Source of the DNA: Escherichia coli | GTDB taxonomy: Bacteria; Pseudomonadota; Gammaproteobacteria; Enterobacterales; Enterobacteriaceae | Length of the DNA: 64,000 nt | Reading direction: 5' to 3' (one strand) | Assembly (NCBI RefSeq): GCF_030013595.1 | Contig: NZ_CP122768.1 | In this document: one piece after another, positions 1,633 to 28,767 of the stretch | Layout: each line of letters starts with the position of its first letter | How positions within the stretch are numbered: position 1 is the stretch's first letter | Program-made: the position numbers and the translations under genes | The notes under the pieces: model-generated | Told to the model about the DNA's origin: nothing | The model's database searches: none | What the model saw: only the letters and a program-made list of their open reading frames with translations

Positions 1633-1645
1633 CCTGAACCAGGAA

Positions 1646-3226
1646 TTAATCTTCGGACTGGTCGTCGGTGTGCTGCGGCTCCTGTCGTTTCGTTGCGGCA
1701 CTACTGCCTCCTTTATCACTGGCCGGATCGGTATCAAATACCAGATCCAGCTTGCGGTTTTCATCAATTTCGGCCTTGCGCCGACGTTTGACATCATCCG
1801 GATTACGACCACCAGCACGTACCCAGTCTGATTCTGTCGCCGCTCCACCACGAATCTGGATTTTCCAGGCCTCAGCCTCCTTAACAGGGTCAATCCACGG
1901 CATCACTGGTCCGGAATACACCGCGGTATACAGTGAAGAACGGTCAAGATCGCGGGGTAGCCTGATAACACCGGATGCCACAGCCTGTTTCAGCCATGCA
2001 CGATACATCGGGCGGGTGACGGCACCAATAAACCAGTCCTGCAGGATCAGGTAGCCATCAGTGGATTCAACCAGCTCCTGACGCTGGGCGCTGTAAGTGC
2101 CGTTATAGTTGCGCGCTGTACTGGAAAAACTCAGACGACTGCCCGCCGCCACGGCACGCAACTGACCATTACGAAAAGTTTCAAGGTTAGGATTGGGGCG
2201 ATCCGACTTCACCATTCCGATTTCTTCGCCGGGTTTCAGATCATCGTAAATAATGCCTGGCTGAATGGTAAGCTCGCGTTCCTTATCCTTGCTGCCATTA
2301 CCATCCGGTTCATAGCTCTGCCCGTCGCCTTTGCGGATGTACATCCCCAGAGCAGCGGCGATCCTTGCTGCAGTCAGCTCATAATCTTCATAATCTTTCA
2401 GGGCACTGAGGCGGATCAGCACACCGGACAACAAAGACGTCCCGCGCATCTGGTGCAGACGGCGAACAAATTTAAGATGCAGCATTCGCTCTGCATCCAC
2501 TTCTTTGGTTTCCATCTGCCGTCCGGATACGGGACGGCTTTTATACACCAGATATTTTTCGGGACGCCCCCAGTCATCAACAAACACGCCCTGATTCAGC
2601 CTGTTGCTCTCATCACTGGTCATGGGAATAAAGTCCGGCTCGAGCGCCTCCAGCCAGAAATGAACACCGGCAGAAGGCGTCAGGCTGTTTATGCGCCCGG
2701 AAACCATCTGGGCAAACACCTCACCATCGCGCAGCCAGGTACGCAGCATCAGACGTTCCAGCATCGGACGGGTAAACTGCCCGGTGACTTCCGGGCTGAC
2801 AGACCATTCACTCCATCGGGTGCGAATCTCCGCTGCCAGATCACGGGCAATGGCCCCATTGCGTAATACCGGATGTGGCTCGACAATAATCCCGTTTTTC
2901 CCCACCACCCGTTCTTCCAGCTTGTCAAATACACCAATAACCAGATCGTGGTTGTTATCAAGGTAACGGGCCTGCTCACGTAACGACACGGCCCCGTACT
3001 GGCTTAGCTGGTCGGCAGTTCGGTTCTCCCGTCGGGCTTTGTGTGTCCGCGTCGTTTTTACGGCTTCATAAGCCTGGATCACCGCACGGGAACGCAGCCT
3101 TGCCGCTTTCCATCCAGGTGAAAAAACGCCAATCACATCATCAAGAATTGCCATCAGAACCTCGCCAGCCGGTACCCGGGATGCCCCCGTCGTCGTGTAA
3201 TCAGAGCCGCAAGGCGGCGCTCCCAC
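1646..3226 (-). CDS. Phage portal protein (lambda gpB-like)
   Basis: 526-aa ORF between terminase and protease genes; size and position as lambda B. Confidence 0.8.
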   Translation of the reverse strand: MGAPPCGSDYTTTGASRVPAGEVLMAILDDVIGVFSPGWKAARLRSRAVIQAYEAVKTTRTHKARRENRTADQLSQYGAVSLREQARYLDNNHDLVIGVFDKLEERVVGKNGIIVEPHPVLRNGAIARDLAAEIRTRWSEWSVSPEVTGQFTRPMLERLMLRTWLRDGEVFAQMVSGRINSLTPSAGVHFWLEALEPDFIPMTSDESNRLNQGVFVDDWGRPEKYLVYKSRPVSGRQMETKEVDAERMLHLKFVRRLHQMRGTSLLSGVLIRLSALKDYEDYELTAARIAAALGMYIRKGDGQSYEPDGNGSKDKERELTIQPGIIYDDLKPGEEIGMVKSDRPNPNLETFRNGQLRAVAAGSRLSFSSTARNYNGTYSAQRQELVESTDGYLILQDWFIGAVTRPMYRAWLKQAVASGVIRLPRDLDRSSLYTAVYSGPVMPWIDPVKEAEAWKIQIRGGAATESDWVRAGGRNPDDVKRRRKAEIDENRKLDLVFDTDPASDKGGSSAATKRQEPQHTDDQSED

Positions 3227-3366
3227 TCCTGCCGTCCCTGCCGGATCTCAGATAAGTTTTCCATGGTCATCTGCTGACCATTAAAGGTGACGGATTTTCC
3301 GTCCAGCACCGCCATTTCAGCTTCCGTATAACGCTGAATCATGGCTTCGATATCATTCTGGTTCAT
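3154..3366 (-). CDS. Head-tail joining protein (lambda gpW-like)
   Basis: About 70 aa ending ...RRRGHPGYRLARF, resembling the gpW C-terminus; start overlaps the terminase stop (ATGA). Confidence 0.6.
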   Translation of the reverse strand: MNQNDIEAMIQRYTEAEMAVLDGKSVTFNGQQMTMENLSEIRQGRQEWERRLAALITRRRGHPGYRLARF

Positions 3367-5465
3367 AACCATCCTCCGGAAGTCAGCCAGGGGTTAACAT
3401 CGTCAGTTACTGTTTTCTTCCGTTTTTGTTTTTTAACAGGCGTGGATACCGGTTCCGGTGAGGATGACGGTTCGGTACTGTCCTGGACACACTCCAGCCA
3501 GGTTTCCCGGCTCGCCCACTCCGGTGCATCCGGCCAGCGGATCTTTTCGTATCCATGCAGAATGACCAGAGCCTCGGCATACACCATCAGGTCAAAAGCT
3601 TCGTTGGCACCGCGACCAGGCTTACTCCATTTCCCGTCACTGCTCCGCTCTTCATACGTCAGTTCGTCGTAAAACCAGCTCCCCAGCCAGTCAGGGAAAT
3701 GCACATAGCCGGGACCTGGCGAGTCACGCCATAACGCGTTATTCACCCGGTCTTTCAGTGCATCCGTCTGAAGAAGCCAGAGCGGCACATCACCTGCGGC
3801 CTGCGCCCGTCGGCCCGTTCGTCCGGTGTTATCAGGGAATGTACGAGTGATCAGTTTTGCGCGCCGGATGCTGTCGCCCTTAAACAGGTAAATACGTTTA
3901 CCAAGGCCATCACGACGGCAACGACGCCAGAATTTATAGGCATTATCAGTGACCCCGTCTTCACCGCCGGAGTCCACCGCCATTGCCATCAGTCGCATTT
4001 GTTGAGAAGGATCGGAGGCCAGCGGCCAGCTTTTATGAAAAACATCCGTCAGCAGGACATCCCAGTCTTCCGGATAGCTGGCCGGATCAATTCGCTGGCT
4101 CTCCCCGTCGCTGTCACCGCGCAATGACTGCGTGATGTTGTAACGATCAATAATCCAGCGTTCGCCACGGCTGCCATAGCCCGTTACCTGAACCACAAAA
4201 CGGCGATGACGTCCCGCCTGCACATCCACTGTCGCCACAAGGAAATTAACGCCATCCGGCACACTGCGGGAAGGAACTGGCTCTGCCCGCTGCTCAAGCA
4301 GTTCACTTTTTCGTTGCTCCATGCTGGCGCGGGGAAGATAAGGTAATCCCCAGTCGGTATTGATAACCGTCTTGAGTGTTTCTTCACTTCCGGTTGTCTC
4401 GTATTCCTGTTCTGCAGTAAGCAGTTTGTAAACGAGTTGCGAGAGTGTCTGGTAAGCAGCTGCCGGACCCTCCATCCAGAATGACGCAATACGTGAGCGT
4501 CGGGGATCACCATAACGACTGCCATCCGCATTGATGGATTCACCATCCCGCAACCAGACCCCACGTCCGTTCAGCTCACGTTTTTGTTCAGGCATAATCC
4601 GTCCTGAACAGGAAGGGCACTGAATATAAGCCGCCTCACTTGCCAGCACGGGATCGGCAATATCACGGAAACCAGCAACCACATCGCCGCAGGGCTGAAA
4701 ATACTCACCACAGTGTGGACAGGGCCAGTACCAGCGACGGCGATCACCACGGTTATAGAGCGACAGGATCCCCGTGGTTGGTGGAGCCTCATGCGGTGAA
4801 GTCCGTCGCCATTTCACATCCTTCACATCCCTGCCGGGGGAACTCTCCACCAGCGTCATACCGCTGGACATAAATGTGGTGGTACGTTTTGAGGCAAGAG
4901 AGAAAGCATCCCCCTCGCCATCAATATCTTCCGGAAAACGGTCATAATCCGTCAGCGCGACGCATTTATAATCTGATGAGGACATGATATTGACTGACGG
5001 CCAGCCGATTTTCAGGTAGTTACCAGCAAGGAATGTTCTGTCATAAACGTTGTTGTCATTTTTGTTCGGACTCAGGCGACTGACCACTTCCGGGCTGACG
5101 CGAAACGTTCTGGCAAGTCGTTTTTTGGAGTGTTCGCGGGCTTTTTCCTCCGTCATCTGAATGATCAGCATATCAGCAGGATCGCAAATCACGTTGTAAA
5201 TCACCCAGCCGTCAATCAGGCCGATAGTCTTGCCAGTTCGTGCCGGGCCAACAAATATCACTGCGTCGTATTCACGCGAGGCCAGGCAGTTCATCGGCTC
5301 AATAACATACGGTGCCACCAGCGGATCCCACGGGACTGAGTTCCCTGCCCCCATGGGCACCCGCATATACTGAGCAACGGCATCAGCAACCCGCATTCGT
5401 CTCGGTGCGCGAAGGATATAACCTGAATCGGTTCGTGCTGCCTTTGCGGTTTCCTGATTCAGCAT
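3363..5465 (-). CDS. Terminase large subunit (GpA-like)
   Basis: 700-aa ORF with ATPase P-loop VGPARTGKT, directly downstream of the small subunit. Confidence 0.9.
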   Translation of the reverse strand: MLNQETAKAARTDSGYILRAPRRMRVADAVAQYMRVPMGAGNSVPWDPLVAPYVIEPMNCLASREYDAVIFVGPARTGKTIGLIDGWVIYNVICDPADMLIIQMTEEKAREHSKKRLARTFRVSPEVVSRLSPNKNDNNVYDRTFLAGNYLKIGWPSVNIMSSSDYKCVALTDYDRFPEDIDGEGDAFSLASKRTTTFMSSGMTLVESSPGRDVKDVKWRRTSPHEAPPTTGILSLYNRGDRRRWYWPCPHCGEYFQPCGDVVAGFRDIADPVLASEAAYIQCPSCSGRIMPEQKRELNGRGVWLRDGESINADGSRYGDPRRSRIASFWMEGPAAAYQTLSQLVYKLLTAEQEYETTGSEETLKTVINTDWGLPYLPRASMEQRKSELLEQRAEPVPSRSVPDGVNFLVATVDVQAGRHRRFVVQVTGYGSRGERWIIDRYNITQSLRGDSDGESQRIDPASYPEDWDVLLTDVFHKSWPLASDPSQQMRLMAMAVDSGGEDGVTDNAYKFWRRCRRDGLGKRIYLFKGDSIRRAKLITRTFPDNTGRTGRRAQAAGDVPLWLLQTDALKDRVNNALWRDSPGPGYVHFPDWLGSWFYDELTYEERSSDGKWSKPGRGANEAFDLMVYAEALVILHGYEKIRWPDAPEWASRETWLECVQDSTEPSSSPEPVSTPVKKQKRKKTVTDDVNPWLTSGGWL

Positions 5466-5995
5466 TACTCCTCCTGCTGTAATTCCTCCTCATCATCCGC
5501 ACCTGCTTCAGTCACCCGCAGGGCTATCTGATCGCGCAGATCATCAATAATGGACTGAACACGGCTCACAGCGGCAGGCTGCAGACCGCAGTCACGTTCA
5601 AGAATATCCGGTAATGTCTCCAGCACCTGCACGACCGCTTTTACCCAGATGGCAAACTCCCGTCTGACATCACTGGCCGGAATGAGTTGTGCCGTTTCCT
5701 GTTCGAACTTAAGACGCTCACGTTCAGACTGATACCAGGCTTTGCGCTCATGCGCGTCCATTTCGCCTTCTGCAACCGGCGGAGGTAATGCCAGAAATGC
5801 CGACACAATATCAACCACCCGATAAAGCTTGAGGTTGCTTTCATGCCCCCCTGCAACGGGTAGATTTTGCAGCCTTGCCGCAGCAGTCTGGCGATGTACA
5901 CCTGACAGTGCCGCCAGTTGACTGATATTCAGCGTCAGATTTTTTAACTCTCGATCCATACCCGCTCCAGAATGTTTTAAACATGCATCTTGCAA
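5465..5995 (-). CDS. Terminase small subunit (Nu1-like, N-terminal HTH)
   Basis: 176-aa ORF; LNISQLAALSGVHRQTAAARL HTH and acidic C-terminus; true start may be the internal Met (MDRELKN). Confidence 0.65.
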   Translation of the reverse strand: MQDACLKHSGAGMDRELKNLTLNISQLAALSGVHRQTAAARLQNLPVAGGHESNLKLYRVVDIVSAFLALPPPVAEGEMDAHERKAWYQSERERLKFEQETAQLIPASDVRREFAIWVKAVVQVLETLPDILERDCGLQPAAVSRVQSIIDDLRDQIALRVTEAGADDEEELQQEE

Positions 5996-6373
5996 ACAAC
6001 TTTAGGCAAACGGTGTCAGTGATGAACAAAAAACAATCAAGATCGACACCATGAAAATAAAACAGCTGTAATATCAATTAATTATAGTGGTGGTGATGAC
6101 GGATAAAATTTCAAAAACTAGCCTTTTTCCGCGACGCTCCCGCCCCGTGGCAAGGCCACCCCACCGGGAGGACCCATGAAAAATGAGAGAAATTATCATT
6201 TATGCTCAATTAAACATCAGCATTATCGCAGCCCCTCACTGAAGGACTGCTGTAATGCTGATTGTTCAACATCAAAAAACCCAATCTGTTGCAAGTTATA
6301 AAAGCAACAAACGACATTGCGCGTTAAGATTTTCTTAATATTTAAGAAATATATTTTTTAATCTCATTTATTT

Positions 6374-6967
6374 TTGCAAAAGACTTTTCATATGCAGCGT
6401 CGAGAAATAAAGAAAATTACTTATTTAATCACTTTGATTTTAACTACTCTTTTGTTTGTTTATTTTTTAAGAACACCCACCACAATCAATATGAAACAGG
6501 CGCATAAAATAAATCAACAACACCAGACAATTTTCCTTATCCGTCACGGTGAACGATGTGACAGAAGCAAAAATGCATGTCTCTCAAGCAATAAAGGAAT
6601 TACCGTCAATGGTGCCATTAAAGCTCATGATTATGGAAAAATATTTAGCAATACTTTCCCGTCATTCAGCCTTTACTCCACGGATACCATACGGACAATG
6701 CAGACAGCCTGTTTTTTCTCTGGAGGAAAAGCAGCCTCCCGGATACCGTTGGCTGCAACATGCGGACTTGATGCTGCAAAGGACATACTCAAATTGTCAT
6801 CCGATAATAAAACTACCGTTATATTCACCCATAATCATTGCCTGACACAAATAGCAAAAAAAATGAAATGGTGGAAGTTAAAGCCAGAATATCTTGAAAC
6901 ACTGGTTCTTCATATCGAAAACAATCGTCTCATTCTTGACGGAAAACTGACTCACGATAAAGCGTAA
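6374..6967 (+). CDS. Secreted histidine phosphatase, Ais/PmrG-like (moron at the lambda bor position)
   Basis: Hydrophobic N-terminus, then LIRHGERCDRSKNACLSSNKGITVNG ... VIFTHNHCLTQIAK, matching the RHGE catalytic motif and overall pattern of Ais. AT-rich, opposite strand to flanking late genes. Start ambiguous (6374, 6392 or 6491). Confidence 0.7.
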   Translation: MQKTFHMQRREIKKITYLITLILTTLLFVYFLRTPTTINMKQAHKINQQHQTIFLIRHGERCDRSKNACLSSNKGITVNGAIKAHDYGKIFSNTFPSFSLYSTDTIRTMQTACFFSGGKAASRIPLAATCGLDAAKDILKLSSDNKTTVIFTHNHCLTQIAKKMKWWKLKPEYLETLVLHIENNRLILDGKLTHDKA

Positions 6968-7038
6968 CAATCATTCAAAGAGTCAACATATTTTCTGCAT
7001 TAACCCCGAACAGTTCCTCTGCCGGGGTTTTGTATTAG

Positions 7039-7422
7039 TTATCGCCTCAACTGAAAATGCGGTCCGTCTTTCAGGCTGGTCCACTCCCCGCCCCATTCGA
7101 TGGCAGTTCCCAGCTCTGCGGCAGCCTGCTTAAATGCCTGCGCGATTTTCTCGTACAGAGGCCAGTCCCATGACACCTGGCTGCCAACCCAGGCCACAAC
7201 ATCCACCGCATCACCGGTCAGGTGGCGGCTGTTCATGGTCTGGCTCTTGCCTTCTGCAACCAGCTGTTTCTGGCGTTCTTTCGTGCGCAGGCCTTCCGTA
7301 ATACCGAAATCAACCTCCGTCAGCTCCAGCGCACGGCGAACGACAGCAACCAGCTGTGGTTTAACGCCCTCCAGATTTTTCTCGCTCCGACGACTGAATC
7401 TGAATTTACCCGACATATTCAC
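7039..7422 (-). CDS. Endolysin, peptidase M15 family (L-alanyl-D-glutamate peptidase type)
   Basis: 127 aa with SRHLTGDAVD ... DGPHFQL metal-binding signature; last gene of the lysis cassette. Confidence 0.8.
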   Translation of the reverse strand: MNMSGKFRFSRRSEKNLEGVKPQLVAVVRRALELTEVDFGITEGLRTKERQKQLVAEGKSQTMNSRHLTGDAVDVVAWVGSQVSWDWPLYEKIAQAFKQAAAELGTAIEWGGEWTSLKDGPHFQLRR

Positions 7423-7694
7423 CTCAACAATGGAAAGATTTTTGTGACGTTCCCGCGTGCGCGTATCACCAGCACGCAGAACAGCAGATTAAAAAACACT
7501 TCCAGCCAGCCCGTTGCTAACGGGCGACCACACAGATAGCTGAGGGGCGCAAAGGCATACAGCAGCATCAGCAGCCAGGCCAGCCATGACATCAGCGGTT
7601 TGTGCGTGGCATCTTTTCGGCGATAAAAAAAGAACGTCAGCACGATAACCGTGCATAACGCCACATTCAGCAATCCGGGAAGGTTACTTAACAT
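7419..7694 (-). CDS. Small membrane protein of lysis cassette (putative holin/antiholin partner)
   Basis: 91 aa, two or three hydrophobic helices; overlaps both neighbours. Confidence 0.5.
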   Translation of the reverse strand: MLSNLPGLLNVALCTVIVLTFFFYRRKDATHKPLMSWLAWLLMLLYAFAPLSYLCGRPLATGWLEVFFNLLFCVLVIRARGNVTKIFPLLR

Positions 7695-8076
7695 TGCCGC
7701 CTCCTCCGCCCCTCAGGCGGGAGAACAGGCCGGACACCAGTGATGCGATATCCTGCTGGTGGATGAATGACAGAATCTTCACTGACACCACCGATACCAG
7801 CACCGCACACAGCGCATCTGCCGATGTACCGTCATACCCTGTTTTTGATGTAATCCAGGCTGACAGTACACGTGCTCCCAGCACGCCGACGATAAACGAC
7901 ACCAGAAAATGCGCCGCCACACGCCAGGCGGAAATCTTCTGCGGCACAGTTGCCACAAACAAAGCCCCCGCGAACGCACCAAACACAATCCCGAAATCCG
8001 TTCCGGTGAACAGCCCGAATACCGTCGCCCCTCCGAGCGCAGCCGCCGTGCCGGAACCGGATAAGGGTTCAGACAT
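7684..8076 (-). CDS. Putative holin
   Basis: 130 aa, Gly/Ala-rich TM helices and charged C-terminus; first gene of the lysis cassette. Confidence 0.6.
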   Translation of the reverse strand: MSEPLSGSGTAAALGGATVFGLFTGTDFGIVFGAFAGALFVATVPQKISAWRVAAHFLVSFIVGVLGARVLSAWITSKTGYDGTSADALCAVLVSVVSVKILSFIHQQDIASLVSGLFSRLRGGGGGNVK

Positions 8077-8534
8077 ACTTTTTTCTCCTGTAAATAAAAA
8101 AGGGCCACCAGCGGCCCGTAAAAAAACAACACCCCGTCAAAGGCACCCGCAGATACCTTTTGTGTGGTGTATTCAGATTTGACATACGCTGAGCAGGGCG
8201 AAGAAATGAAAAAGGCCCGCAGTAGCGAGCCATGAAGAAACTGAATAAAAAAAACCGCCTGGTACGGCGGTTAAGATGAATTTCCAGGTTTTGCTTAATA
8301 CGTGATTAATCTCAACGTTTTTTATAGATGTTAACAACATCGGAATGATGCATCACCGGCCCTGTCAGGAAATACAAAATCTCCACCGATAATGCACCAT
8401 TACGCTGTTGTAAAAAGACAGCACTGGACTGTAACCGATATCACGTATTACAGAACAGGATGTGGATAAAGATTCAGGAAAACATCCCACATATAATATG
8501 TCAGTGCCCAAAACAACTTGGTATCGTCTACTGC

Positions 8535-8609
<75 letters not shown>

Positions 8610-9026
8610 ATACTATGCGGTCTTCAGTAATCACACGAATTACCGTGAAAGCCAGCACTGGTCTTTCCGACGGTAGTAACACCCCTGTGAACACCAAAAT
8701 AACCGTCTTCCAGACCGACGAGAATACTAACGACATTTTTTCAGATATCAAAAATATATTTTGTTTTTAGTTTTTAATATATGTATGCATCTGTATCAGA
8801 AATATACAATTTATATCATTACTAAATTAAAAACATTTCTCTGACGTCTGATTAAAACGTTCCTGTTCCAGTTCCGCGCCAATCACACATGGTCATTGCG
8901 TTTTACCAGTCCATCGCCACTATCAGGCTGACCAGGGGACGCCCCACCCGAACTGCTGAGAATGCCAGGCACACAAAGAATAATGCCCGCCAAAGCGTTC
9001 CTGCATACAATGACTGCAAAATTCAG

Positions 9027-9878
9027 TTATTCTTGAGCGGAGCCAGAACTCATCTCACTGAATGCAGCCATCCTGTAACCTTCCGGGGTGACCCCAAAAT
9101 AACGCCTGAATACACTGATAAAATAAGATGTATTATTATAGCCACACTGCACAGCGATTCTGTTGATGGCACAGCTATATTGATGCAACAGCATTGCTGC
9201 CATTCTCATTCTCTCCGTAAGCAACAACTCACTGAAACATGTGCCTTCTTCTTTCAGTCTTTTTTTTAACAAACTTTCACTCATACATAACCGTGATGAC
9301 ACATCTCGCAGAGTCCAGTTTGCTGCAATGTCTGTATGAAACAACGCACCAAGCCTGCCGCTGATAGTACTGATACACGCGGTCATAAACGACGAAAACA
9401 TTTTATCTGATGAAAAAAACGCCAGACACGAAAAGGAAAGCATTTCCGCTAAATTGTCCGTATGAATCTTTTCCTCATAAAGATAATCAATCAGGATGCC
9501 CATCAATTCTGGCCTGGGAAAACTCATGCAAAGATATCGTGGCATTTTCCGGACTAAAACAACATCCTGTTTTACCCCACTACGCAACAGGTAACGGCTA
9601 ATTGTCGATTCACTGAGACTTATACGCCGAAAACATTCAGAAAAGGGCAATAACGGTCCAGCCCCTCCCCTGACAAGAAGTGCACTACCACTTTCCAGAG
9701 AGAGTACTTTTCCTTCGAAGAGCACAACAAACGGGGAATGAACAAAAATAACAGAACAGGCCTCATTCATATCAATATCCCTGACATTACTGGTCGCAAG
9801 ATAAGTATATATCACTTTACAAAAATGCAAGCCGTGAGCCCCGAATTCACGACCACCAGCGTGTTTACTGTACTGCAC
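9027..9878 (-). CDS. AraC-family transcriptional regulator (AppY/Rns-like), moron
   Basis: C-terminal AraC HTH (LRDVSSRLCMSESLLKKRLKEEG ... VQCGYNNTSYFISVFRRYFGVTP); AT-rich; start uncertain (internal Met MNEACSVIFV possible). Confidence 0.8.
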   Translation of the reverse strand: MQYSKHAGGREFGAHGLHFCKVIYTYLATSNVRDIDMNEACSVIFVHSPFVVLFEGKVLSLESGSALLVRGGAGPLLPFSECFRRISLSESTISRYLLRSGVKQDVVLVRKMPRYLCMSFPRPELMGILIDYLYEEKIHTDNLAEMLSFSCLAFFSSDKMFSSFMTACISTISGRLGALFHTDIAANWTLRDVSSRLCMSESLLKKRLKEEGTCFSELLLTERMRMAAMLLHQYSCAINRIAVQCGYNNTSYFISVFRRYFGVTPEGYRMAAFSEMSSGSAQE

Positions 9879-10274
9879 CAGGTTTACAGGTACAAAAAAC
9901 CGCTCGACGGCGGGTTTAAGCTGTGTGGCGAAGTAACCACTCTTAACAGATTAAGATAAAATTTGCGGACCGCGGTAATTTTTTTTGCTAAATTAAAGCC
10001 ATATAAAAAAAGATCCATAAGAAATTATTAGTATACTAAGGTTTAACATGGCTACTATTGCGCAATCAAAGAAACAAAAAAACTTAAAATTGGTTTTTAC
10101 ACCAGCAGTTCTGGGACTATCCGCAGCCATTCAGTTGCTAAGCAAGCAATTGAAAATCTGTATAATACTTGCGTAACCGTTACGAATAATCATTTTGATA
10201 CCATCTATAGAAATAAAAAGTTAAAAATAGCTTTTATAAATAAAGATACAAAAGCTAAATATTTCTTCGGCTAC

Positions 10275-18591: not shown

Positions 18592-19284
18592 ATGAACATA
18601 GGAAACCGAGTCAGACAACTTCGCCAGGCGAAGAACATGAAAATAGCCGATCTCGCTGAAGCAATAGGAGTGGATGCGGCGAATATCTCACGCCTGGAAA
18701 CAGGTAAGCAGAAACAATTCACTGAACAAGCCCTGAGTAATATTGCCAGGAGCTTAGGTGTTGATATTGCTGATCTCTTTACCTCAGACTTCAAAAGTAA
18801 TACTGTATGCAAAAACAGTATTAGTGAGGATGTTGCGCAGGTGAAGGATGTATTCCGTATTGAAATGCTGGATGTCAGTGCCAGTGCGGGAAATGGCCTT
18901 ATCCAGGGCGGTGATGTCATTGATGTGATTCATGCCATTGAATACAGAACTGATAATGCTGTATCGATGTTTGGCGGACGGCCAGCCAATCACATTAAAG
19001 TTATCAACGTTCGTGGGGACAGTATGTGTCCAACCATTGAGCCAGGAGATCTCATCTTCGTTGATGTCAGTATCAATCAGTTTGATGGAGATGGTATCTA
19101 TGTATTTGGTTTTGATGATAAAATTTATGTCAAACGACTGCAAATGATACCTGACAAACTACTGGTGATTTCTGATAACCAGATTTACCGTGAATGGGGA
19201 ATTACCAGCGAAAATGAACACCGGTTTATGGTCTTTGGAAAGGTCTTAATCAGCCAGTCACAAACCCTTAAGCGACACAATTAA
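18592..19284 (+). CDS. CI-type prophage repressor (HTH + S24 LexA-like peptidase domain)
   Basis: 230 aa; N-terminal XRE HTH; C-terminal GDSMCPTIEPGDLIFVD (Ser nucleophile) and later Lys in FDDKIYVKRL. Confidence 0.85.
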   Translation: MNIGNRVRQLRQAKNMKIADLAEAIGVDAANISRLETGKQKQFTEQALSNIARSLGVDIADLFTSDFKSNTVCKNSISEDVAQVKDVFRIEMLDVSASAGNGLIQGGDVIDVIHAIEYRTDNAVSMFGGRPANHIKVINVRGDSMCPTIEPGDLIFVDVSINQFDGDGIYVFGFDDKIYVKRLQMIPDKLLVISDNQIYREWGITSENEHRFMVFGKVLISQSQTLKRHN

Positions 19285-19304
19285 CCCTTACCTCCTCATC
19301 AATT

Positions 19305-19329
19305 AGCCACCCGAAGGTGGCTTTTCATT
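19305..19329 (+). terminator. Rho-independent terminator after cI
   Basis: AGCCACC-cgaa-GGTGGCT followed by TTTCATT. Confidence 0.65.
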
Positions 19330-19804
19330 ACTCATCAAATTGCATATCTCGCAACAAAAACACTTGCATAATGCGCAACTTCATTTTATCTTTCTTTCCA
19401 GACAAACAAACAAGGTACTAACAAAATTTGGTTGTAACACGGCGTATGGCACATGCGTCGTTAGCGGTCTGGGGACGTTAAAGGGGACAATCCACTCCTT
19501 GCTCGGGCAAACAAACCAGGTAGCCGGAATGTGCAAGTCAATGATGATGCTGATAAGACGCCTAACCAGCGTGGCGATTCGGTTTGACGCCTGGGAAGAG
19601 ACCAGGGTGCAACGATGAGGGCATTTATGGAACCGCGACAAAGTGTGGTGCCGTAACTGGCTAAGTGCTCTCAGCGTTGTGGTGAATGCGCAGGCTGATG
19701 CGCGAAAGACATTGCAGATATTGCGGAAAAGAGCTGTTCGGCGGGGCAATTAAATGCCCGTGAGAGTCTGAAATAACCGCAAGCCGGAGATCAGCACCGG
19801 TCAC

Positions 19805-19869
19805 CACAACAGCCACTGCTTTGGCGGTACCAGTTTGTACACTTGCTTCCGGCTGGTACCGTCCTTTTT
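19805..19869 (+). ncRNA. Candidate DicF-like sRNA
   Basis: TTTGGCGGTACCAGTTT resembles the DicF core as recalled; followed by GGTACCAG...CTGGTACC hairpin and CCTTTTT; lies in a ~700-nt stretch with no convincing ORF. Confidence 0.35.
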
Positions 19870-20083
19870 ACAAAACAGAGAAGAGCATCACCGGACGACG
19901 GGCTCATAACCCAATCCATCCGGGCGGCTGCCACCGCAGGTGTTCTTCTCTGTTTTGTGGAGAAACTAACCGCCCCTGCGGGGGCATCTATTGAAACGTA
20001 ATTGACTCAATAATCGCCGGATGGTGAGGGCTTCCTTTTCCCAAAATTCAGCGCGGTGCAGCGCATATAAAGTGGAGAACGAA

Positions 20084-20620
20084 ATGTCATTTATTAAAAC
20101 TTTTTCCGGGAAGCATTTTTATTATGACAAGATAAATAAAGACGACATCGTTATTAACGATATCGCGGTTTCCCTTTCAAATATCTGCCGCTTTGCCGGT
20201 CATCTTTCTCACTTCTACAGCGTCGCCCAACATGCGGTGCTTTGCAGCCAGCTGGTGCCGCAGGAATTTGCTTTTGAAGCTTTAATGCATGATGCAACAG
20301 AAGCATATTGCCAGGACATCCCCGCACCACTGAAACGACTTCTTCCTGACTATAAACGGATGGAAGAAAAAATAGACGCCGTAATCCGTGAGAAATACGG
20401 GTTACCTCCTGTTATGAGCACGCCAGTGAAATATGCCGATCTCATTATGCTGGCAACCGAACGCCGCGATCTCGGGCTTGATGATGGCTCTTTCTGGCCT
20501 GTGCTGGAAGGTATCCCGGCAACAGAGATGTTCAACGTGATTCCACTGGCTCCAGGCCATGCCTACGGGATGTTTATGGAACGCTTTAACGAATTATCGG
20601 AGTTACGCAAATGCGCATGA
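20084..20620 (+). CDS. HD-domain phosphohydrolase, YfdR-like 5'-deoxynucleotidase
   Basis: MSFIKTFSGKHFYYDK... with H...HD motif (AQHAVL ... MHDATEAY); recalled as near-identical to CPS-53 YfdR. Start set at internal ATG of ORF 20021..20620. Confidence 0.8.
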   Translation: MSFIKTFSGKHFYYDKINKDDIVINDIAVSLSNICRFAGHLSHFYSVAQHAVLCSQLVPQEFAFEALMHDATEAYCQDIPAPLKRLLPDYKRMEEKIDAVIREKYGLPPVMSTPVKYADLIMLATERRDLGLDDGSFWPVLEGIPATEMFNVIPLAPGHAYGMFMERFNELSELRKCA

Positions 20621-20973
20621 ATGTTTTCGAAATGGAAGGGTTTCTTCGTGGGAGATGTGTACCGCGAGATCTGAAAGTGAATGAAACGGATGCTGAATAC
20701 CTAGTGCGTAAATTCGATGCGCTTGAAGCTAAATGTGCAGCACAGGAAAACAAAGTAATACCAGTGTCAACTGAACTGCCACCAGCAAATGAAAGTGTTT
20801 TGTTATTTGATGCTAATGGAGAAGGCTGGCTGATTGGCTGGCGTTCTCTCTGGTATACATGGGGGCAAAAAGAAACCGGAGAATGGCAGTGGACATTTCA
20901 GGTCGGGGACCTTGAAAACGTCAATATCACTCACTGGGCAGTAATGCCAAAAGCACCGGAGGCTGGAGCATAA
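20611..20973 (+). CDS. Hypothetical prophage protein (YfdS-like)
   Basis: 120-aa ORF overlapping neighbours in an operon. Confidence 0.55.
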   Translation: MRMNVFEMEGFLRGRCVPRDLKVNETDAEYLVRKFDALEAKCAAQENKVIPVSTELPPANESVLLFDANGEGWLIGWRSLWYTWGQKETGEWQWTFQVGDLENVNITHWAVMPKAPEAGA

Positions 20974-21593
20974 TGACCACATTTACCGATAAAGAACTGA
21001 TTAAAGAAATCAAAGAACGAATCAGCAGCCTAGAGGTTCGAGACGATATTGAGCGCCGTGCTTATGAAATTGCTCTGGCATCGCTAGAAGAGGAGCCGGT
21101 GGCATGGCTGCATTCAGAAAATGGCTTAGGTATTCCGGCAATAACGAGGAGTAAAAACATTGCTGACAGTTGGTTATCAAAGGGCTGGTATGTTCAGCCG
21201 CTATATATAGCCAAGCCAGTGCCGGTGGTGCCAGATGCTCGTCCGTCTTTAAATAATGGCATAGTCGGTTTTGATGAAGGCTGGAACGCCTGCCGCGCCG
21301 CCATGCTTCATGGTGCCGAACCTGTAAGCCAGACTTACAAGTTGAACAAGCTGTCGGGCAACTCTCCAGTAACTCCGGATGGTTGGATAAGCTGTAGTGA
21401 GCGAATGCCGAACGATAAACAGTATGTTTGGTGTTGGGGGAAGCCTTACGGCTGGACTGAGTGCGATACCTTCGAAGGGTATTACGATTGGTCGAGAAAC
21501 AAATGGTGGGCAGTTACTGACGATAGGGAAGAACCGGCATCGAAAGTAACCCACTGGATGCCGCTACCGGAGCCGCCGCAGGAGGTGAAGTAA
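20973..21593 (+). CDS. DUF551-domain prophage protein
   Basis: 206 aa; C-terminal ...VTHWMPLPEPP motif. Confidence 0.6.
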   Translation: MTTFTDKELIKEIKERISSLEVRDDIERRAYEIALASLEEEPVAWLHSENGLGIPAITRSKNIADSWLSKGWYVQPLYIAKPVPVVPDARPSLNNGIVGFDEGWNACRAAMLHGAEPVSQTYKLNKLSGNSPVTPDGWISCSERMPNDKQYVWCWGKPYGWTECDTFEGYYDWSRNKWWAVTDDREEPASKVTHWMPLPEPPQEVK

Positions 21594-21787
21594 TGAACAA
21601 CTTAATGACAACTAAACAAGTCGCCGACTTCTGTGGCGTTTCAGTATCGACTGTTCTTCGCTGGAACAGCGTAAACAGGAGAACTGGCCAGAAATACAGG
21701 CCTGACTTTCCAGATCCTGATATTAAATCCTGCCCAAATAAATGGGCATCACGCAAGATATACAGATTTGCTGGAGTTATTGAGTAA
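21593..21787 (+). CDS. Excisionase/AlpA-like small DNA-binding protein (putative)
   Basis: 64 aa; TTKQVADFCGVSVSTVLRW winged-helix-like; position near int. Confidence 0.5.
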   Translation: MNNLMTTKQVADFCGVSVSTVLRWNSVNRRTGQKYRPDFPDPDIKSCPNKWASRKIYRFAGVIE

Positions 21788-22000
21788 CGTGTATTATCTC
21801 AGATGGGAGCTGACATATCTATGGCACAGACCAAACTAATCTGACAGTCAAGTCTGTGCCAAGAGCAAACGTTGCTAATTTAATGTTAAGTTGTTTCTCT
21901 TGAAGACGATCACGCTATGATACAACCTATAAAATTATCGATATCTGAGAGAACCAGTAAAAAGTTTAAGTCAAGGGTTCTATAAGTGTGTTAATTTATT

Positions 22001-22030
22001 GGGAAGCAATAAGCTTCCCTTCTCTTTATT
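22001..22030. terminator. Hairpin terminator between convergent xis operon and AIPR gene
   Basis: GGGAAGC-aataa-GCTTCCC followed by T-rich tract. Confidence 0.45.
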
Positions 22031-23726
22031 TAGGTACGCTATCAACACTTTTGAGAATCGTTGATGTTAAAGGCTGCGACTTTAGTAAGTCTCGAGAAAT
22101 ATCCGGATCTGGTATAGCTATTTTTACTAAACTCTCAAGTTTTTCAAACCACTCCCCATCATTCATTGAGAATAAGTTATGAAGAGCTTCATTTTTATTT
22201 TTGAACCCCCAAGCCTTATAATTATTACCACAGTATTTTGACGCAGCAGTTAGAATATGCCAGCGTAATTTTGAATACTTCCCATCAAACCTCTTATTTG
22301 AGATAAGAGCCTTTAGCCTATACAAGCAATAGCAAGATATATAATAATCATCCTCGAGGGCATCGGAAGAGAAAACCTCATTAAGTAAGTCACCAGTTAA
22401 CCTATTTGGATAACGACTGGAATAATCTGGTCTCATCATAACAATAGCAGCATATGCTCGCGCAACTTCTCTGATATCAAATATGCGTACTGGAGCTATA
22501 CTTTCTGAACTATACTGCCCCTTTCTTCTCTCAAAATAAATTTTATTTCCTTCAATAGCACCTTTAGCATTAAAATAATGTTCTAATTCCCTTAATTTTT
22601 TTAGCGTTGAAATGAACTGTGCATCTTCAACTTTAGATTGTCTATTCGTAGCTCGTACAATGTCATCAAGGATCGCTGGCTCATCGGTTTCAATTAATTT
22701 AATCATTAAACTAACTGATTCATCTACTTGAATGTCTTTTGATATAAGAACATTAGACGTTTGACATCCATTAACAATTTGAAAATCTCGTATAAAAATT
22801 TCTTGCCCTGCAGGCCTCACGCTTGATGCAACTATTGTCACTCCATTATTCATTAAACCAAATCTTGCTTTTTTTCCATCAGTATCTAGTGTTCCTGCAA
22901 TTTCTGAATTTACGTCACCATCAATTCCCAGAAAATCTCTAACATTTTCTTCGAATAATTTTTTTCGAGGGTTTCCATTTTTGTCTTTAAGTATAGAATC
23001 AATAAAACTACGAGCTTTGACTGTAGCTACATAGGCATTATTAATATTAGGGGCCGCTGGGAATGGAGCATAGCCTATTGTAGGAAGTTTAGCTTCTATT
23101 GGACCTTCCGCAGCAAGCCAAAGCTCATGAATCATGTCTTTGTGAGCCATAATGAAGGATGTTTCATGTGAAAACCCGAGTGACTTTAAGCTTTTTTCAC
23201 CCGATGCAAATGCAGCTTTTATTTCTCTGGCCTCTGTATTTTGTGCAGCACTAAAAAAATATGCGTATAAGTCTGGAAGGCCATTTTTGACTCTGCCGAT
23301 ATTAGCAAATATCAAGTTGAACATTTTTTTAAAGTCCGCTAGATATTCACTGTGGGGTTGTTGTGGCGCTGGTGAAAGATAATCTCTTATTGACGCAATG
23401 TAAGAGTCTATTTCCTGTTTGCTCCACTTCTCCGATGACTTAGCTTGCGTGAATACTAATGAAACTTGAAACTCGCGACGTGAGTTTTGGAAAATCTCCT
23501 GAAGTTCTTCAGTTGAAAAAATGGCTCTGTCGTCTAAAAATAAAAATGCTCCATCAATACCAGGGTCCGGGCCTTCATACACAAGATCACTGACCTCAAC
23601 TTTGTCGCCTGAGTATTTTGAAAAAGCACAATAGTTCACAAACGCCTCAAAATTTTTGGTCTCCTCATAGGGCGCAGCGAATGCTTTGCAAAAGGCATCG
23701 AAATAAGATTTCGTGACTAAATGCAT
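22026..23726 (-). CDS. AIPR-family abortive infection protein
   Basis: 566 aa from ATG at 23726 (AAGGAG Shine-Dalgarno 7 nt upstream); FGLMNNGVTIVASSV ... FQIVNGCQTSNVL resembles the AIPR core; very AT-rich. The ORF-track N-terminal extension is translation of AT-rich upstream DNA. Confidence 0.7.
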   Translation of the reverse strand: MHLVTKSYFDAFCKAFAAPYEETKNFEAFVNYCAFSKYSGDKVEVSDLVYEGPDPGIDGAFLFLDDRAIFSTEELQEIFQNSRREFQVSLVFTQAKSSEKWSKQEIDSYIASIRDYLSPAPQQPHSEYLADFKKMFNLIFANIGRVKNGLPDLYAYFFSAAQNTEAREIKAAFASGEKSLKSLGFSHETSFIMAHKDMIHELWLAAEGPIEAKLPTIGYAPFPAAPNINNAYVATVKARSFIDSILKDKNGNPRKKLFEENVRDFLGIDGDVNSEIAGTLDTDGKKARFGLMNNGVTIVASSVRPAGQEIFIRDFQIVNGCQTSNVLISKDIQVDESVSLMIKLIETDEPAILDDIVRATNRQSKVEDAQFISTLKKLRELEHYFNAKGAIEGNKIYFERRKGQYSSESIAPVRIFDIREVARAYAAIVMMRPDYSSRYPNRLTGDLLNEVFSSDALEDDYYISCYCLYRLKALISNKRFDGKYSKLRWHILTAASKYCGNNYKAWGFKNKNEALHNLFSMNDGEWFEKLESLVKIAIPDPDISRDLLKSQPLTSTILKSVDSVPK

Positions 23727-23982
23727 AAAAACTCCTTTCTGAAATAAGATAAGTTTATTAGAAACAACAAGATAAAGATAAAGATAATAGTAATACAAGT
23801 TAAAGACATACTGCATCACATAAGTTGGTCAAGATCAATAAATCAATAAGGATCCCCTATGTTTTATGTATTGTTGATAATTCTATCACCTCTTACTTCT
23901 GGTCTAAGCGTAACCTACTCAAGAATGCCATTGAAAATGTCCACTGTTCGCTCAAAACAGACTGTCAGGGCTACGCAAGCTG

Positions 23983-25206
23983 TCAGGTAGATTCTGGGCC
24001 AGTACAAGTAACGATCGATTCAACTCTCTCCCACCATGCCTGATATGCTTTACGCTGTTCTTCTAGATAATCGCTCTTGTCATAAACCTGCCAAACCCCT
24101 GGCAGTTTATGGCCGAGCATTATTTCTGCAATATGAGGAGCAGTAAGATCAGAAAAGTTTGTTCGTGCTGTTCGCCTCAAATCATGAAGAGACCAATGAG
24201 GGAATTGATGCCCCAAACGCCTCCATGCGTACTGCATTAAATTGTAAGGCAGCGACTGCAATGATGTTCGACCAACGGGTTCCCTGCTTCCTTCCTTAGT
24301 AAAAAGCATATCGGAACCATTGTTCATAGAGATAGCGTTCTTTATAAGCTCCTCCACCGGTTCAATAATGGGCCTCTTTAGCGGTTCGCCTGTTATCTCT
24401 CCAGTCTTATGTCGTTCTGGTGGTACAGTCCATACCTTATTAATGAAATCAAAATCGCCCACCCTGGCAGTAATTAGCTCTGAACTACGGCAGCCAAAAT
24501 GCAGCAATAGCTTAATGAAGGCCCGGTATTTAGGAACCATTCGAGAACCATCGATCGCAGAATAAAGGATTTTAATTTCATCATGTGTCAGAAACCGTTT
24601 CTTCTGACCTTTACGGATATCCATATCTTTACCCGTGATATCCGACAGCGGGCGAGTTTCAATGAGCTTTCTCTTATACGCCCAGACATGGGCCTGCTTT
24701 GCGTTAATTAGCAATCGGTCTGCTATTGCTGGAGTCTTAGTGCTAAGAGGCTCCAGGACTTCTAACCAATCATGCAATGTAGCTGCATCGTGAGGGATAT
24801 TCCCGATTTTAGAGAACAGGTGCAGCTCAAACGAGCGGAGTATCTGTTCAGAACCTTTTTTATTTTTTACACAATATGCTTCATACCAGGCACGGATCAC
24901 AGACTCTACCGTCATGGCTTCAGTAGCTTTTCGTTTTTCAGCCTGCTTGACCAATCGTGGATTACGGTTTGACTCAAGTTCACCACGGAGACGGATAACT
25001 TCTTCTCTGGCCTCTTTTAATCCAGTTGCCGGGTAAGTTCCGATATCAAGACGCTCACCTTTCCCTGCCCATTGATAACGATATTGGAACACTACGCGAC
25101 CTTTCGGTGATACTCTGACAGACAGACCATCACGATCGGATTTAACCAAAACCTTATCACGTTCCTTTCCAACGACTGAACGCAACCACGCATCAGACAA
25201 CGCCAT
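23983..25206 (-). CDS. Tyrosine integrase (P4-type)
   Basis: 407 aa; C-terminal catalytic region HDLRRTARTNFSDL ... HIAEIMLGH ... VYDKSDY. Confidence 0.9.
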   Translation of the reverse strand: MALSDAWLRSVVGKERDKVLVKSDRDGLSVRVSPKGRVVFQYRYQWAGKGERLDIGTYPATGLKEAREEVIRLRGELESNRNPRLVKQAEKRKATEAMTVESVIRAWYEAYCVKNKKGSEQILRSFELHLFSKIGNIPHDAATLHDWLEVLEPLSTKTPAIADRLLINAKQAHVWAYKRKLIETRPLSDITGKDMDIRKGQKKRFLTHDEIKILYSAIDGSRMVPKYRAFIKLLLHFGCRSSELITARVGDFDFINKVWTVPPERHKTGEITGEPLKRPIIEPVEELIKNAISMNNGSDMLFTKEGSREPVGRTSLQSLPYNLMQYAWRRLGHQFPHWSLHDLRRTARTNFSDLTAPHIAEIMLGHKLPGVWQVYDKSDYLEEQRKAYQAWWERVESIVTCTGPEST

Positions 25207-25214
25207 TACTCACC

Positions 25215-25272
25215 TTGTACAAATCGCAAAACACCTCTGCTGTTTTGTACATTATGTACAAGCATATGTACA
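25215..25272. repeat. Four TGTACA-containing repeats beside int (candidate arm-type integrase sites)
   Basis: TTGTACA (25215-25221), TTTGTACA (25244-25251), TATGTACA (25253-25260), TATGTACA (25265-25272). Confidence 0.4.
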
Positions 25273-25426
25273 GATTTTTGATGAAAGCAAACTGATCGAT
25301 TTAAAGTTACATGAAAGAATTTTCAATTAAAGAAGCCACATAACCAAATGTATTTAAATGAGTTATATAGCTCAAGCTCAATTAACTGAAAGGATTTTGA
25401 AAGAGTAAAAGAGCTTTAATTTGGGC

Positions 25427-25501
25427 TTAATTATTGGGGTGAGAAATAATGGCAAAAGTGCGGCGCTTCGCCACCTCTTGCAAATAAGGAGACAACGTCA
25501 T
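25427..25501 (-). pseudogene. prfC: prfC 5' fragment (codons 1-22) truncated by prophage insertion
   Basis: Minus strand reads [22 protein letters not shown] then NN-stop; the host P-loop ...SHPDAGKTT is broken after P22 at 25435/25436. Confidence 0.8.
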
Positions 25502-25590
25502 AATTCTTTCTTCTTGAGTAAGCGGCATCGCGCCGCGCTTGTTGAAAACGAAAAATTGCGGCTATTTTACCCATCAACGGGGGGAGGCAA

Positions 25591-26268
25591 TCAGTGTTTA
25601 CACAGGAGCTGCTCCAGTTCGTGCAACGAAGAAACGGTCCAGGTAGGCGCGATGCCTTCTGGTTGCTCGCGATTGTGCGCATTCAGCCAGCAGGTCGCAA
25701 GCCCGGCGTTGATGCCACCGAGAATATCGGACTCGGCAGTGTCGCCAACCATCAGCACGCGTGAACGGTCAGGATTGCCCGCCTGTTCCAGCGCATAATC
25801 GAAAATTTTCTTATTCGGTTTGGCAACGCCAACTTCTTCGGAAATCACCAGCAAATCGAAATAATCACGCAGGCCCGTGCGTTCCAGACGCACTTGCTGC
25901 AAGGCGCTAAAGCCGTTGGTGATGATGCCAATTTTAGCGTTGCCACGAATGGCGTTAAGCAGAGAAACCGCGCCCGGCAGCGGCGTACAGATTTCCGCCA
26001 TCGCATTAATAAAGGCTTCGTTGAGTTTACCCGGCTCGACGTTCAGCCGTTCGGCCCAGCTCTCAAACCGCCCGTGCTGAAGCTGTAATGAAGTGATCGC
26101 GCCGTTTTGATAATCCACCCACAGTGGCTTGTTAACGGCCTGATAGTCCTGAAAATCTTCAGCGGTAAAGGTGACGCTGTAATCAAGAAACATCCGCTGC
26201 AGGCCGGTGAATGAGTCAAAGGTAAACAGCGTTTCATCGGCATCAAAGAAAATCCAGTCCCACTTCAT
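25591..26268 (-). CDS. yjjG: Pyrimidine 5'-nucleotidase YjjG (HAD family)
   Basis: 225 aa [15 protein letters not shown]...; K-12 synteny. Confidence 0.95.
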
Positions 26269-28444: not shown

Positions 28445-28531
28445 GCGAAGGTGGCGGAATTGGTAGACGCGCTAGCTTCAGGTGTTAGTGTCCTTACGGA
28501 CGTGGGGGTTCAAGTCCCCCCCCTCGCACCA
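28445..28531 (+). tRNA. leuQ: tRNA-Leu (CAG)
   Basis: 87 nt GCGAAGGTGGCGGAATTGGTAGACGCG...CCTCGCACCA; anticodon loop UUCAGGU. Confidence 0.95.
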
Positions 28532-28559
28532 AAAACCACGTTGATATTGCTCGCACTGG

Positions 28560-28646
28560 GCGAAGGTGGCGGAATTGGTAGACGCGCTAGCTTCAGGTGT
28601 TAGTGTTCTTACGGACGTGGGGGTTCAAGTCCCCCCCCTCGCACCA
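28560..28646 (+). tRNA. leuP: tRNA-Leu (CAG), single-nucleotide variant copy
   Basis: Identical to flanking copies except GTGTTCTT versus GTGTCCTT in the variable arm (C to T, preserves pairing as G-U). Confidence 0.9.
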
Positions 28647-28680
28647 AACGAGGCGATATCAAAAAAAGTAAGATGACTGT

Positions 28681-28767
28681 GCGAAGGTGGCGGAATTGGT
28701 AGACGCGCTAGCTTCAGGTGTTAGTGTCCTTACGGACGTGGGGGTTCAAGTCCCCCCCCTCGCACCA
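28681..28767 (+). tRNA. leuV: tRNA-Leu (CAG)
   Basis: 87-nt copy identical to the first. Confidence 0.95.

Follow-up and report, generated by a model that had tools for sequence, protein, structure and literature searches.

An integrase-proximal prophage junction in Escherichia coli prfC and the probable rebuilding of the gene at the far prophage end

The integration of a prophage within the 5′ end of a gene raises the question of whether the gene is lost or rebuilt. We studied such a case in a 64,000-nucleotide stretch of the Escherichia coli contig NZ_CP122768.1 (assembly GCF_030013595.1), which we refer to as the window. Its minus strand, read from the ATG at 25501, gives the native 5′ end of prfC, the gene for release factor 3 (RF3), and then an NN-stop in phage DNA. 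The initial annotation of the region had proposed that a prophage was integrated inside prfC near the P-loop, and that its distal end, beyond the window start, must either restore a prfC reading frame or leave the gene inactivated.

The displaced native prfC 5′ end (25427..25501, minus strand) forms a 24-codon remnant ORF that consists of host codons 1–22 and the phage NN-stop. In alignments, K-12 prfC with its leader was an exact match for a 14-bp core within codons 18–22 and for the 70 nucleotides upstream of that core, which are prfC codons 1–17 and the last 19 nucleotides of the leader. A tblastn comparison of full-length RF3 with the whole window matched residues 1–23 only (E = 5e-9) and found no second prfC piece in the 64 kb, indicating that the window lacks the remainder of prfC. 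The ORF, the K-12 alignment and the tblastn result together bear out the reading of a prfC N-terminus that runs into NN-stop. Host identity stops at 25437, and 25436, the third base of codon 22 (CCC here vs. CCG in the host), is the first phage-specific base, so that the junction previously placed at 25435/25436 was correct to within one base. Integration at codons 18–22 also falls, as had been proposed, in the P-loop, where the G1 motif (SHPDAGKT) begins. The earlier description of an integration in the 5′ end of an essential-pathway gene stands as to the 5′ end but not as to essentiality, as prfC is not essential.

The right flank of the junction carries yjjG, rimI, holD, rsmC and three tRNA-Leu genes, which is the usual prfC neighborhood. 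The three tRNA-Leu(cag) genes lie in tandem downstream of rsmC (28445..28767, plus strand) and represent the ordinary E. coli leu-tRNA cluster. In a scan of viral contigs with an integrase alignment, the host-side junction sequence was invariant across 19 loci. The equivalent stub in E. coli Ecol_224 is annotated in RefSeq as an incomplete pseudogene.

On the other side of the junction, the in-window part of the prophage (1..25436, minus strand) contains head genes, lysis genes, Q, replication and immunity genes, xis, a defense gene and int, with the tail end and the far junction lying beyond the window start. Of positions 1–25000, 79% matched a ~45-kb lambdoid prophage of Ecol_224 at 98.7% identity, in which terminase, portal, a protease/capsid fusion, lysis genes, Q, Rha and an XRE repressor are annotated, among others. 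ARAGORN predicted a tRNA-Gly(tcc) within the prophage (8535..8609, minus strand). An excisionase, or recombination directionality factor, is encoded at 21593..21787 on the plus strand and matched phrog_1553 over its full length (E = 7.7e-36). Between int and xis lies a gene for a 597-residue AIPR/Abi-alpha-like abortive-infection protein (22026..23819, minus strand; phrog_1841, E = 2.2e-70) that had a weak MzaE-like match in NCBIfam and whose counterpart in Ecol_224 is annotated as an AIPR family protein. This gene is cargo next to int, outside the recombination machinery, and it looks like a defense moron at the prophage end.

The integrase gene (23983..25206, minus strand) encodes a 407-residue tyrosine recombinase of the prfC-targeting group. 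The protein has the arm-binding, core-binding and catalytic domains of a lambda/P4-type integrase, as found with Pfam (Arm-DNA-bind_3, 5e-16; Phage_int_M, 3e-7; Phage_integrase, 4e-17), and its best NCBIfam result was a weak match to a generic integrase domain, with no specific family assigned. In an alignment of ten sequences R240, K267, R344, H366 and Y375 were invariant and H341 nearly so, giving the R-K-H-R-H-Y set of catalytic residues. The H-3-R-22-H-9-Y spacing is as in lambda Int, and by position these residues would be the catalytic ones.

As the far junction of this prophage is outside the window, we turned to relatives for its structure. Ecol_224 is the closest complete genome, and its prophage adjoins, at the far end, a prfC annotated as intact (1,587 nucleotides, 528 residues), the first 21 codons of which are phage-supplied and in frame with the host prfC body. 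The same far-end arrangement is found in FDAARGOS_1262, a second lysogen, whose cargo differs and whose rebuilt prfC reads MTSLLASEVAKRR. When the two sides were counted separately in 5,426 complete E. coli genomes, the near, int-side junction was present in 699 and the far junction, of phage 5′ end to prfC, was likewise present in 699; the exact chimeric RF3 protein was found on at least 1,000 contigs. Relatives therefore resolve the restore-or-inactivate alternative as an in-frame, restored 528-residue RF3, and from the 699 related genomes we infer a restored prfC at the far end in the present genome also.

The chimeric RF3 differs from the native protein only in residues 2–8, which are poorly conserved, and is one residue shorter. 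Across surrogate codons 9–17 (EVAKRRTFA), eight nucleotides in six codons differ from the host and all of these changes are synonymous. Changes that are exclusively synonymous imply selection on the encoded RF3 segment, and the comparison indicates that the surrogate is probably under purifying selection. The conserved RR within the surrogates is written in rare arginine codons, AGA AGA in the phage (L001 3656..3706) and CGA AGG in the integrative and conjugative element (ICE) R997 (L097 1514..1569), compared with CGC CGC in the host. These rare codons may be a compositional effect or a limit on expression. The far arm of the Ecol_224 prophage also carries a TIR-domain anti-phage reverse transcriptase (L001 4544..6148, plus strand) and a DinI-like gene; the latter is divergent from the rebuilt prfC and is preceded by a LexA-box-like CTGTATAAATAAACAG (about 3870..3890), ~170 bp upstream of the rebuilt gene.

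To define the core we aligned the K-12 attB, the window junction, the Ecol_224 far junction and two attP sites. This alignment to an empty site, which the initial annotation had suggested as a check, was exact up to the core and delimited it as ATTATTTCTCACCC (25437..25450, minus strand), 14 bp within prfC codons 18–22 that are identical in attB, attP and both junctions. Strand exchange must fall inside these 14 bp. In attP the core lies between AATTATT and AATAATT, which are inverted repeats of 7 bp; the right one encodes the NN-stop and is located at 25429–25435 in the window. We interpret the two heptamers as candidate core-type sites around a 7-bp overlap, probably CTCACCC.

The phage-derived P′ arm of the junction (25207..25436, minus strand) is 230 bp of AT-rich DNA that contains four TGTACA-core arm-type sites, at 25216–21, 25246–51, 25255–60 and 25267–72. 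TGTACA occurs only ten times in the whole 64-kb window, and four occurrences within 57 bp (25216–25272) just upstream of int are therefore not due to chance. The int ORF starts 9 bp past the last of them, which confirms that the junction lies beside the integrase (23983..25206) and four such repeats.

In the attP sites of phages cdtI (AB285204) and Ayreon (MF807953), and of p13P484A-1 (NZ_CP019281.1), a circular record of 33.7 kb that was deposited as an E. coli plasmid, the P′ arm and the other arm form one continuous stretch. In cdtI and Ayreon attP is uninterrupted and the integrase is in mid-genome. The site spans ~430 bp and, in the prfC sense, comprises P arm sites, AAGAGA and an ATG, a 24-codon mini-ORF that mimics prfC, ~170 bp of AT-rich DNA, P′ arm sites and the int start. 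Each arm has four arm-type sites, located relative to the core at −183, −114, −86 and −74 on one side and +178, +190, +199 and +229 on the other, so that arm-type repeats flank, on either side, the core that attP shares with attB, as in lambda/P4-type attP sites. A 35-nucleotide direct repeat with tandem TTGTACAT units is common to both arms. In both the attP sites and the far junctions of related genomes, the element thus provides prfC with new 5′ codons in frame.

The sequence of p13P484A-1 is nearly identical to that of the arm in the window, and in this record the far arm (DRT, DinI) is joined directly to the near arm (int, AIPR). It runs from a TIR-domain reverse transcriptase through DinI, attP and int to AIPR, and its attP is perfect (L094 1480..2010). 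We consider p13P484A-1 to be probably an excised, and probably deleted, circular form of this prophage type. In Ayreon, surrogate codon 17 is GCC, as in the host, rather than GCA (L002 3950..3970), which extends the identity with attB from 14 to 20 bp; this may be polymorphism or may be left over from an exchange with a K-12 host. The scan of viral contigs with the integrase alignment returned no diverse attP sites, yielding only E. coli prophage fragments of at least 97% identity that were cut at int.

Based on these data, we consider it very probable that the window contains the int-proximal junction of a lambdoid prophage that entered prfC codons 18–22 by site-specific integration with a tyrosine recombinase, and whose far end rebuilds prfC. 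In the model that we propose, attP consists of a P arm with four TGTACA-type sites, a ribosome-binding site, the 21-codon surrogate, the core, the NN-stop tail, a P′ arm with four sites and int. Recombination between attP and the host core would swap the two prfC 5′ ends. The host promoter, leader and codons 1–22 would be left as the 24-codon stub ahead of int, as in the window, and at the far end the phage-borne start would be fused in frame to the host prfC body to give the 528-residue RF3. Excision by Int and the excisionase would reverse the swap; for this prophage type, xis is present in the window and attP is intact in the phage genomes and in the circular record.

The window shows a single junction, which could in principle come from an assembly chimera or from a duplicated prfC remnant with no connection to integration; the initial annotation had named both as findings that would refute its reading. 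The counts of 699 genomes for the near and the far junction exclude a chimera, as do phage genomes and the circular record, in which attP is uninterrupted, and the duplicated remnant was rejected on the junction counts, the K-12 empty-site alignment and the attP of the circular record. An identical junction in 699 independent complete genomes, a matching attP and an empty K-12 site that aligns exactly up to the core leave this explanation with almost no probability. Simple inactivation of prfC, in which the far-end ORF would go unexpressed after the removal of the native promoter and ribosome-binding site and lysogens would be RF3-deficient, a state tolerated by E. coli, has more in its favor. 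E. coli deleted for prfC is viable, no consensus promoter was found upstream of the surrogate start, Ogura 2007 (PMC2323221) gives prfC as non-essential and the expression of the rebuilt gene as unknown, and Bobay 2013 (PMC3603311) counts prfC as disrupted. We nevertheless regard inactivation as quite improbable. The surrogate has changed six codons, all synonymously, with no replacement in the RF3 residues that it preserves; its start codon and AAGAGA motif are positioned as in the native gene; and it belongs to a chimeric ORF annotated as intact in both lysogens that we inspected.

We also considered that the prophage could be a decayed, immobile remnant that has kept int and the junction, such that the anatomy would be historical and not functional in this strain. 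The tail half is outside the window, and prophages at the prfC site vary in cargo and show deletions. Against this, int, xis, the arm sites and the core are all intact in the window, the 25 kb within it keep the full set of early, lysis and head genes when compared with Ecol_224, and near-identical modules occur in the isolated phages Ayreon and cdtI; on balance, we find decay unlikely. The reading of a site-specific integration that rebuilds prfC also has a practical consequence for annotation: the 24-codon stub is the displaced native 5′ end, and prfC in such lysogens is not to be scored as disrupted.

If prfC is rebuilt, the gene has exchanged its expression signals as well as its first codons. 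The surrogate start consists of an ATG preceded by AAGAGA, which resembles a Shine-Dalgarno motif and is positioned as in native prfC. A strict scan of the sense strand upstream of this start found no sigma-70 consensus promoter, and the candidates from a relaxed scan of our own making, TGcTATGCT at −87 and TTTTCT-17-CATAAT at −22, were all weak. The last 45 bp of the phage leader of the rebuilt gene are tandem Int arm-type sites, and the coding start contains the tandem rare AGA codons. The rebuilt prfC would be transcribed from phage DNA.

The native leader and ribosome-binding site of prfC remain in the yjjG-prfC intergenic region (25502..25590, minus strand), which faces the stub and int and probably holds the native prfC promoter; in K-12 the relaxed scan gave a candidate, TTGCCT-16-TAAAAT, at −90 to −63. 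A C-run in this intergenic region (25560..25591) is one C shorter in the window than in K-12, which reduces the spacer of the promoter candidate from 16 to 15 nucleotides. The strict promoter and terminator scans returned nothing useful near either junction. As no terminator-like site was predicted by the strict scan between the intergenic region and int, the native promoter would read through the stub into int. A regulatory effect of the 5′-end swap, with the native prfC promoter feeding int and the phage setting an RF3 level that responds to Int and Xis, is a speculation to which we attach little likelihood. If it were correct, the level of RF3, and hence the fidelity of termination, would be set by the phage and be responsive to both proteins in lysogens that make up ~13% of complete E. 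coli genomes, and occupancy by the prophage could alter the site that is used by SXT/R391 resistance ICEs.

The arrangement of a prophage in prfC is common and has already been described; the present case is correct but ordinary. Published accounts include those of Ogura 2007 for an Stx1 phage and Hochhut & Waldor 1999 for SXT, and, for the cdt-I phage, the work cited by Smyshlyaev 2021 (PMC8138268). Stx1a and Stx2c phages of O103 and CC119 STEC have prfC as a recurrent integration site (PMC10132054). Ogura 2007 reported that RF-3 is altered over a short stretch at its N terminus by the Stx1 phage, which also takes away the native promoter and ribosome-binding site, and stated that transcription and translation of the rebuilt gene were not known (PMC2323221). 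Bobay 2013 lists prfC among genes "disrupted" by prophages (PMC3603311), and the anatomy of the junctions argues against that reading of prfC.

Among phages the closest relatives of the prophage are cdtI and Ayreon, whose int and arm DNA are 96–97% identical to the window and whose core, arm sites and surrogate prfC 5′ end are the same as in the prophage type found here. The cargo differs from that of Stx and cdt phages, as no stx or cdt gene is annotated in the matching part of the Ecol_224 prophage and AIPR/Abi adjoins int here. The Int of the cdt1 phage clusters with IntSXT in the prfC-targeting group of tyrosine recombinases (Smyshlyaev 2021, PMC8138268). The window integrase is 98% identical to cdtI Int and 39% identical, over its full length, to the Int of R997 (E = 8e-91), with the arm-binding N-terminal domain best conserved, which places it with this cluster by homology. 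More distant relatives, at 51–84% identity, in Pantoea stewartii, Xenorhabdus, Serratia, Shewanella and Pseudomonas adjoin a prfC stub that ends exactly in ...AIISHP, and TGTACA-type 7-mers are enriched in the arm between stub and int. With the motif that we used, no prfC stub was found in two relatives at 51–55% Int identity (Morganella L008 and Pantoea agglomerans L012), indicating that prfC targeting is not universal at that level of identity.

The SXT/R391 conjugative elements, of which R997 is one (PMC5561048; R997 is not mentioned in Wozniak 2009), use a 17-bp site in the 5′ end of prfC (Hochhut & Waldor 1999). The 17-bp attP consensus of these elements, ATcATcTCtCACCCtGA (PMC9058013), aligns with E. 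coli ATTATTTCTCACCCGGA, and the 14-bp core of the prophage lies within this site, which is the integration site of the IntSXT cluster. On a Proteus chromosome with an SXT/R391 ICE the host prfC stub is broken at the same CACCC. In the ICE (R997, Proteus), GTGTACAAA arm repeats flank the core, and two of these repeats are just upstream of the ICE-borne surrogate prfC start. R997 and the phage in the window therefore both have TGTACA-core arm sites flanking the attP core, the same core position and their own surrogate start.

In other respects the two differ. The SXT/R391 elements are conjugative, whereas the element here carries, in place of a conserved backbone of tra, mobI, setCD and other conjugation genes, the terminase, portal, capsid, lysis and Q genes of a lambdoid phage. 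In R997, xis occupies the space between int and the core, and the two genes are convergent, with int directed toward the junction; the phage int borders directly on the P′ arm and is oriented away from the junction, and the phage xis is found 2 kb deeper in the prophage. The surrogate N-termini are also distinct (MANQDFLNEINKRR vs. MTSLLAAEVAKRR), as are the tails after the core, DAAQPFNA-stop in R997 vs. NN-stop in the phage. The prophage is thus not an SXT/R391 ICE, with which it has the type of integration module alone in common. By these comparisons, the phage and ICE modules are homologous in enzyme, target, arm motif and strategy, and differ in gene order and surrogate sequence. Lambdoid phages, including Stx- and Cdt-converting ones, thereby have an integration-module type and a 17-bp target in common with the SXT/R391 resistance ICEs. 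A promoter supplied for the rebuilt prfC has been reported for SXT only (PMC8409611).

There is nothing new in principle at this locus and its value is mainly for annotation, yet it shows clearly how an attP can bring with it a start codon, a ribosome-binding site and an N-terminal coding segment for the gene that it invades. Other elements rebuild their targets from the opposite end, as phage 21 and e14 integrate at icd, in gene 3′ ends, and duplicate the displaced end. Duplication of 3′ ends by phages is mentioned in PMC3603311. In such phages, as here, the attP copy of the displaced segment preserves the ORF. However, 3′-end integrators need no promoter or start, whereas the prfC phage must supply a 5′ end, start codon, ribosome-binding site and promoter. 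Integrative elements specific for dusA (e.g., IMEVchUSA3), for which expression was shown by lacZ fusion (PMC8409611), have another target gene and an integrase of another group, and the analogy to the prfC prophage is one of strategy only.
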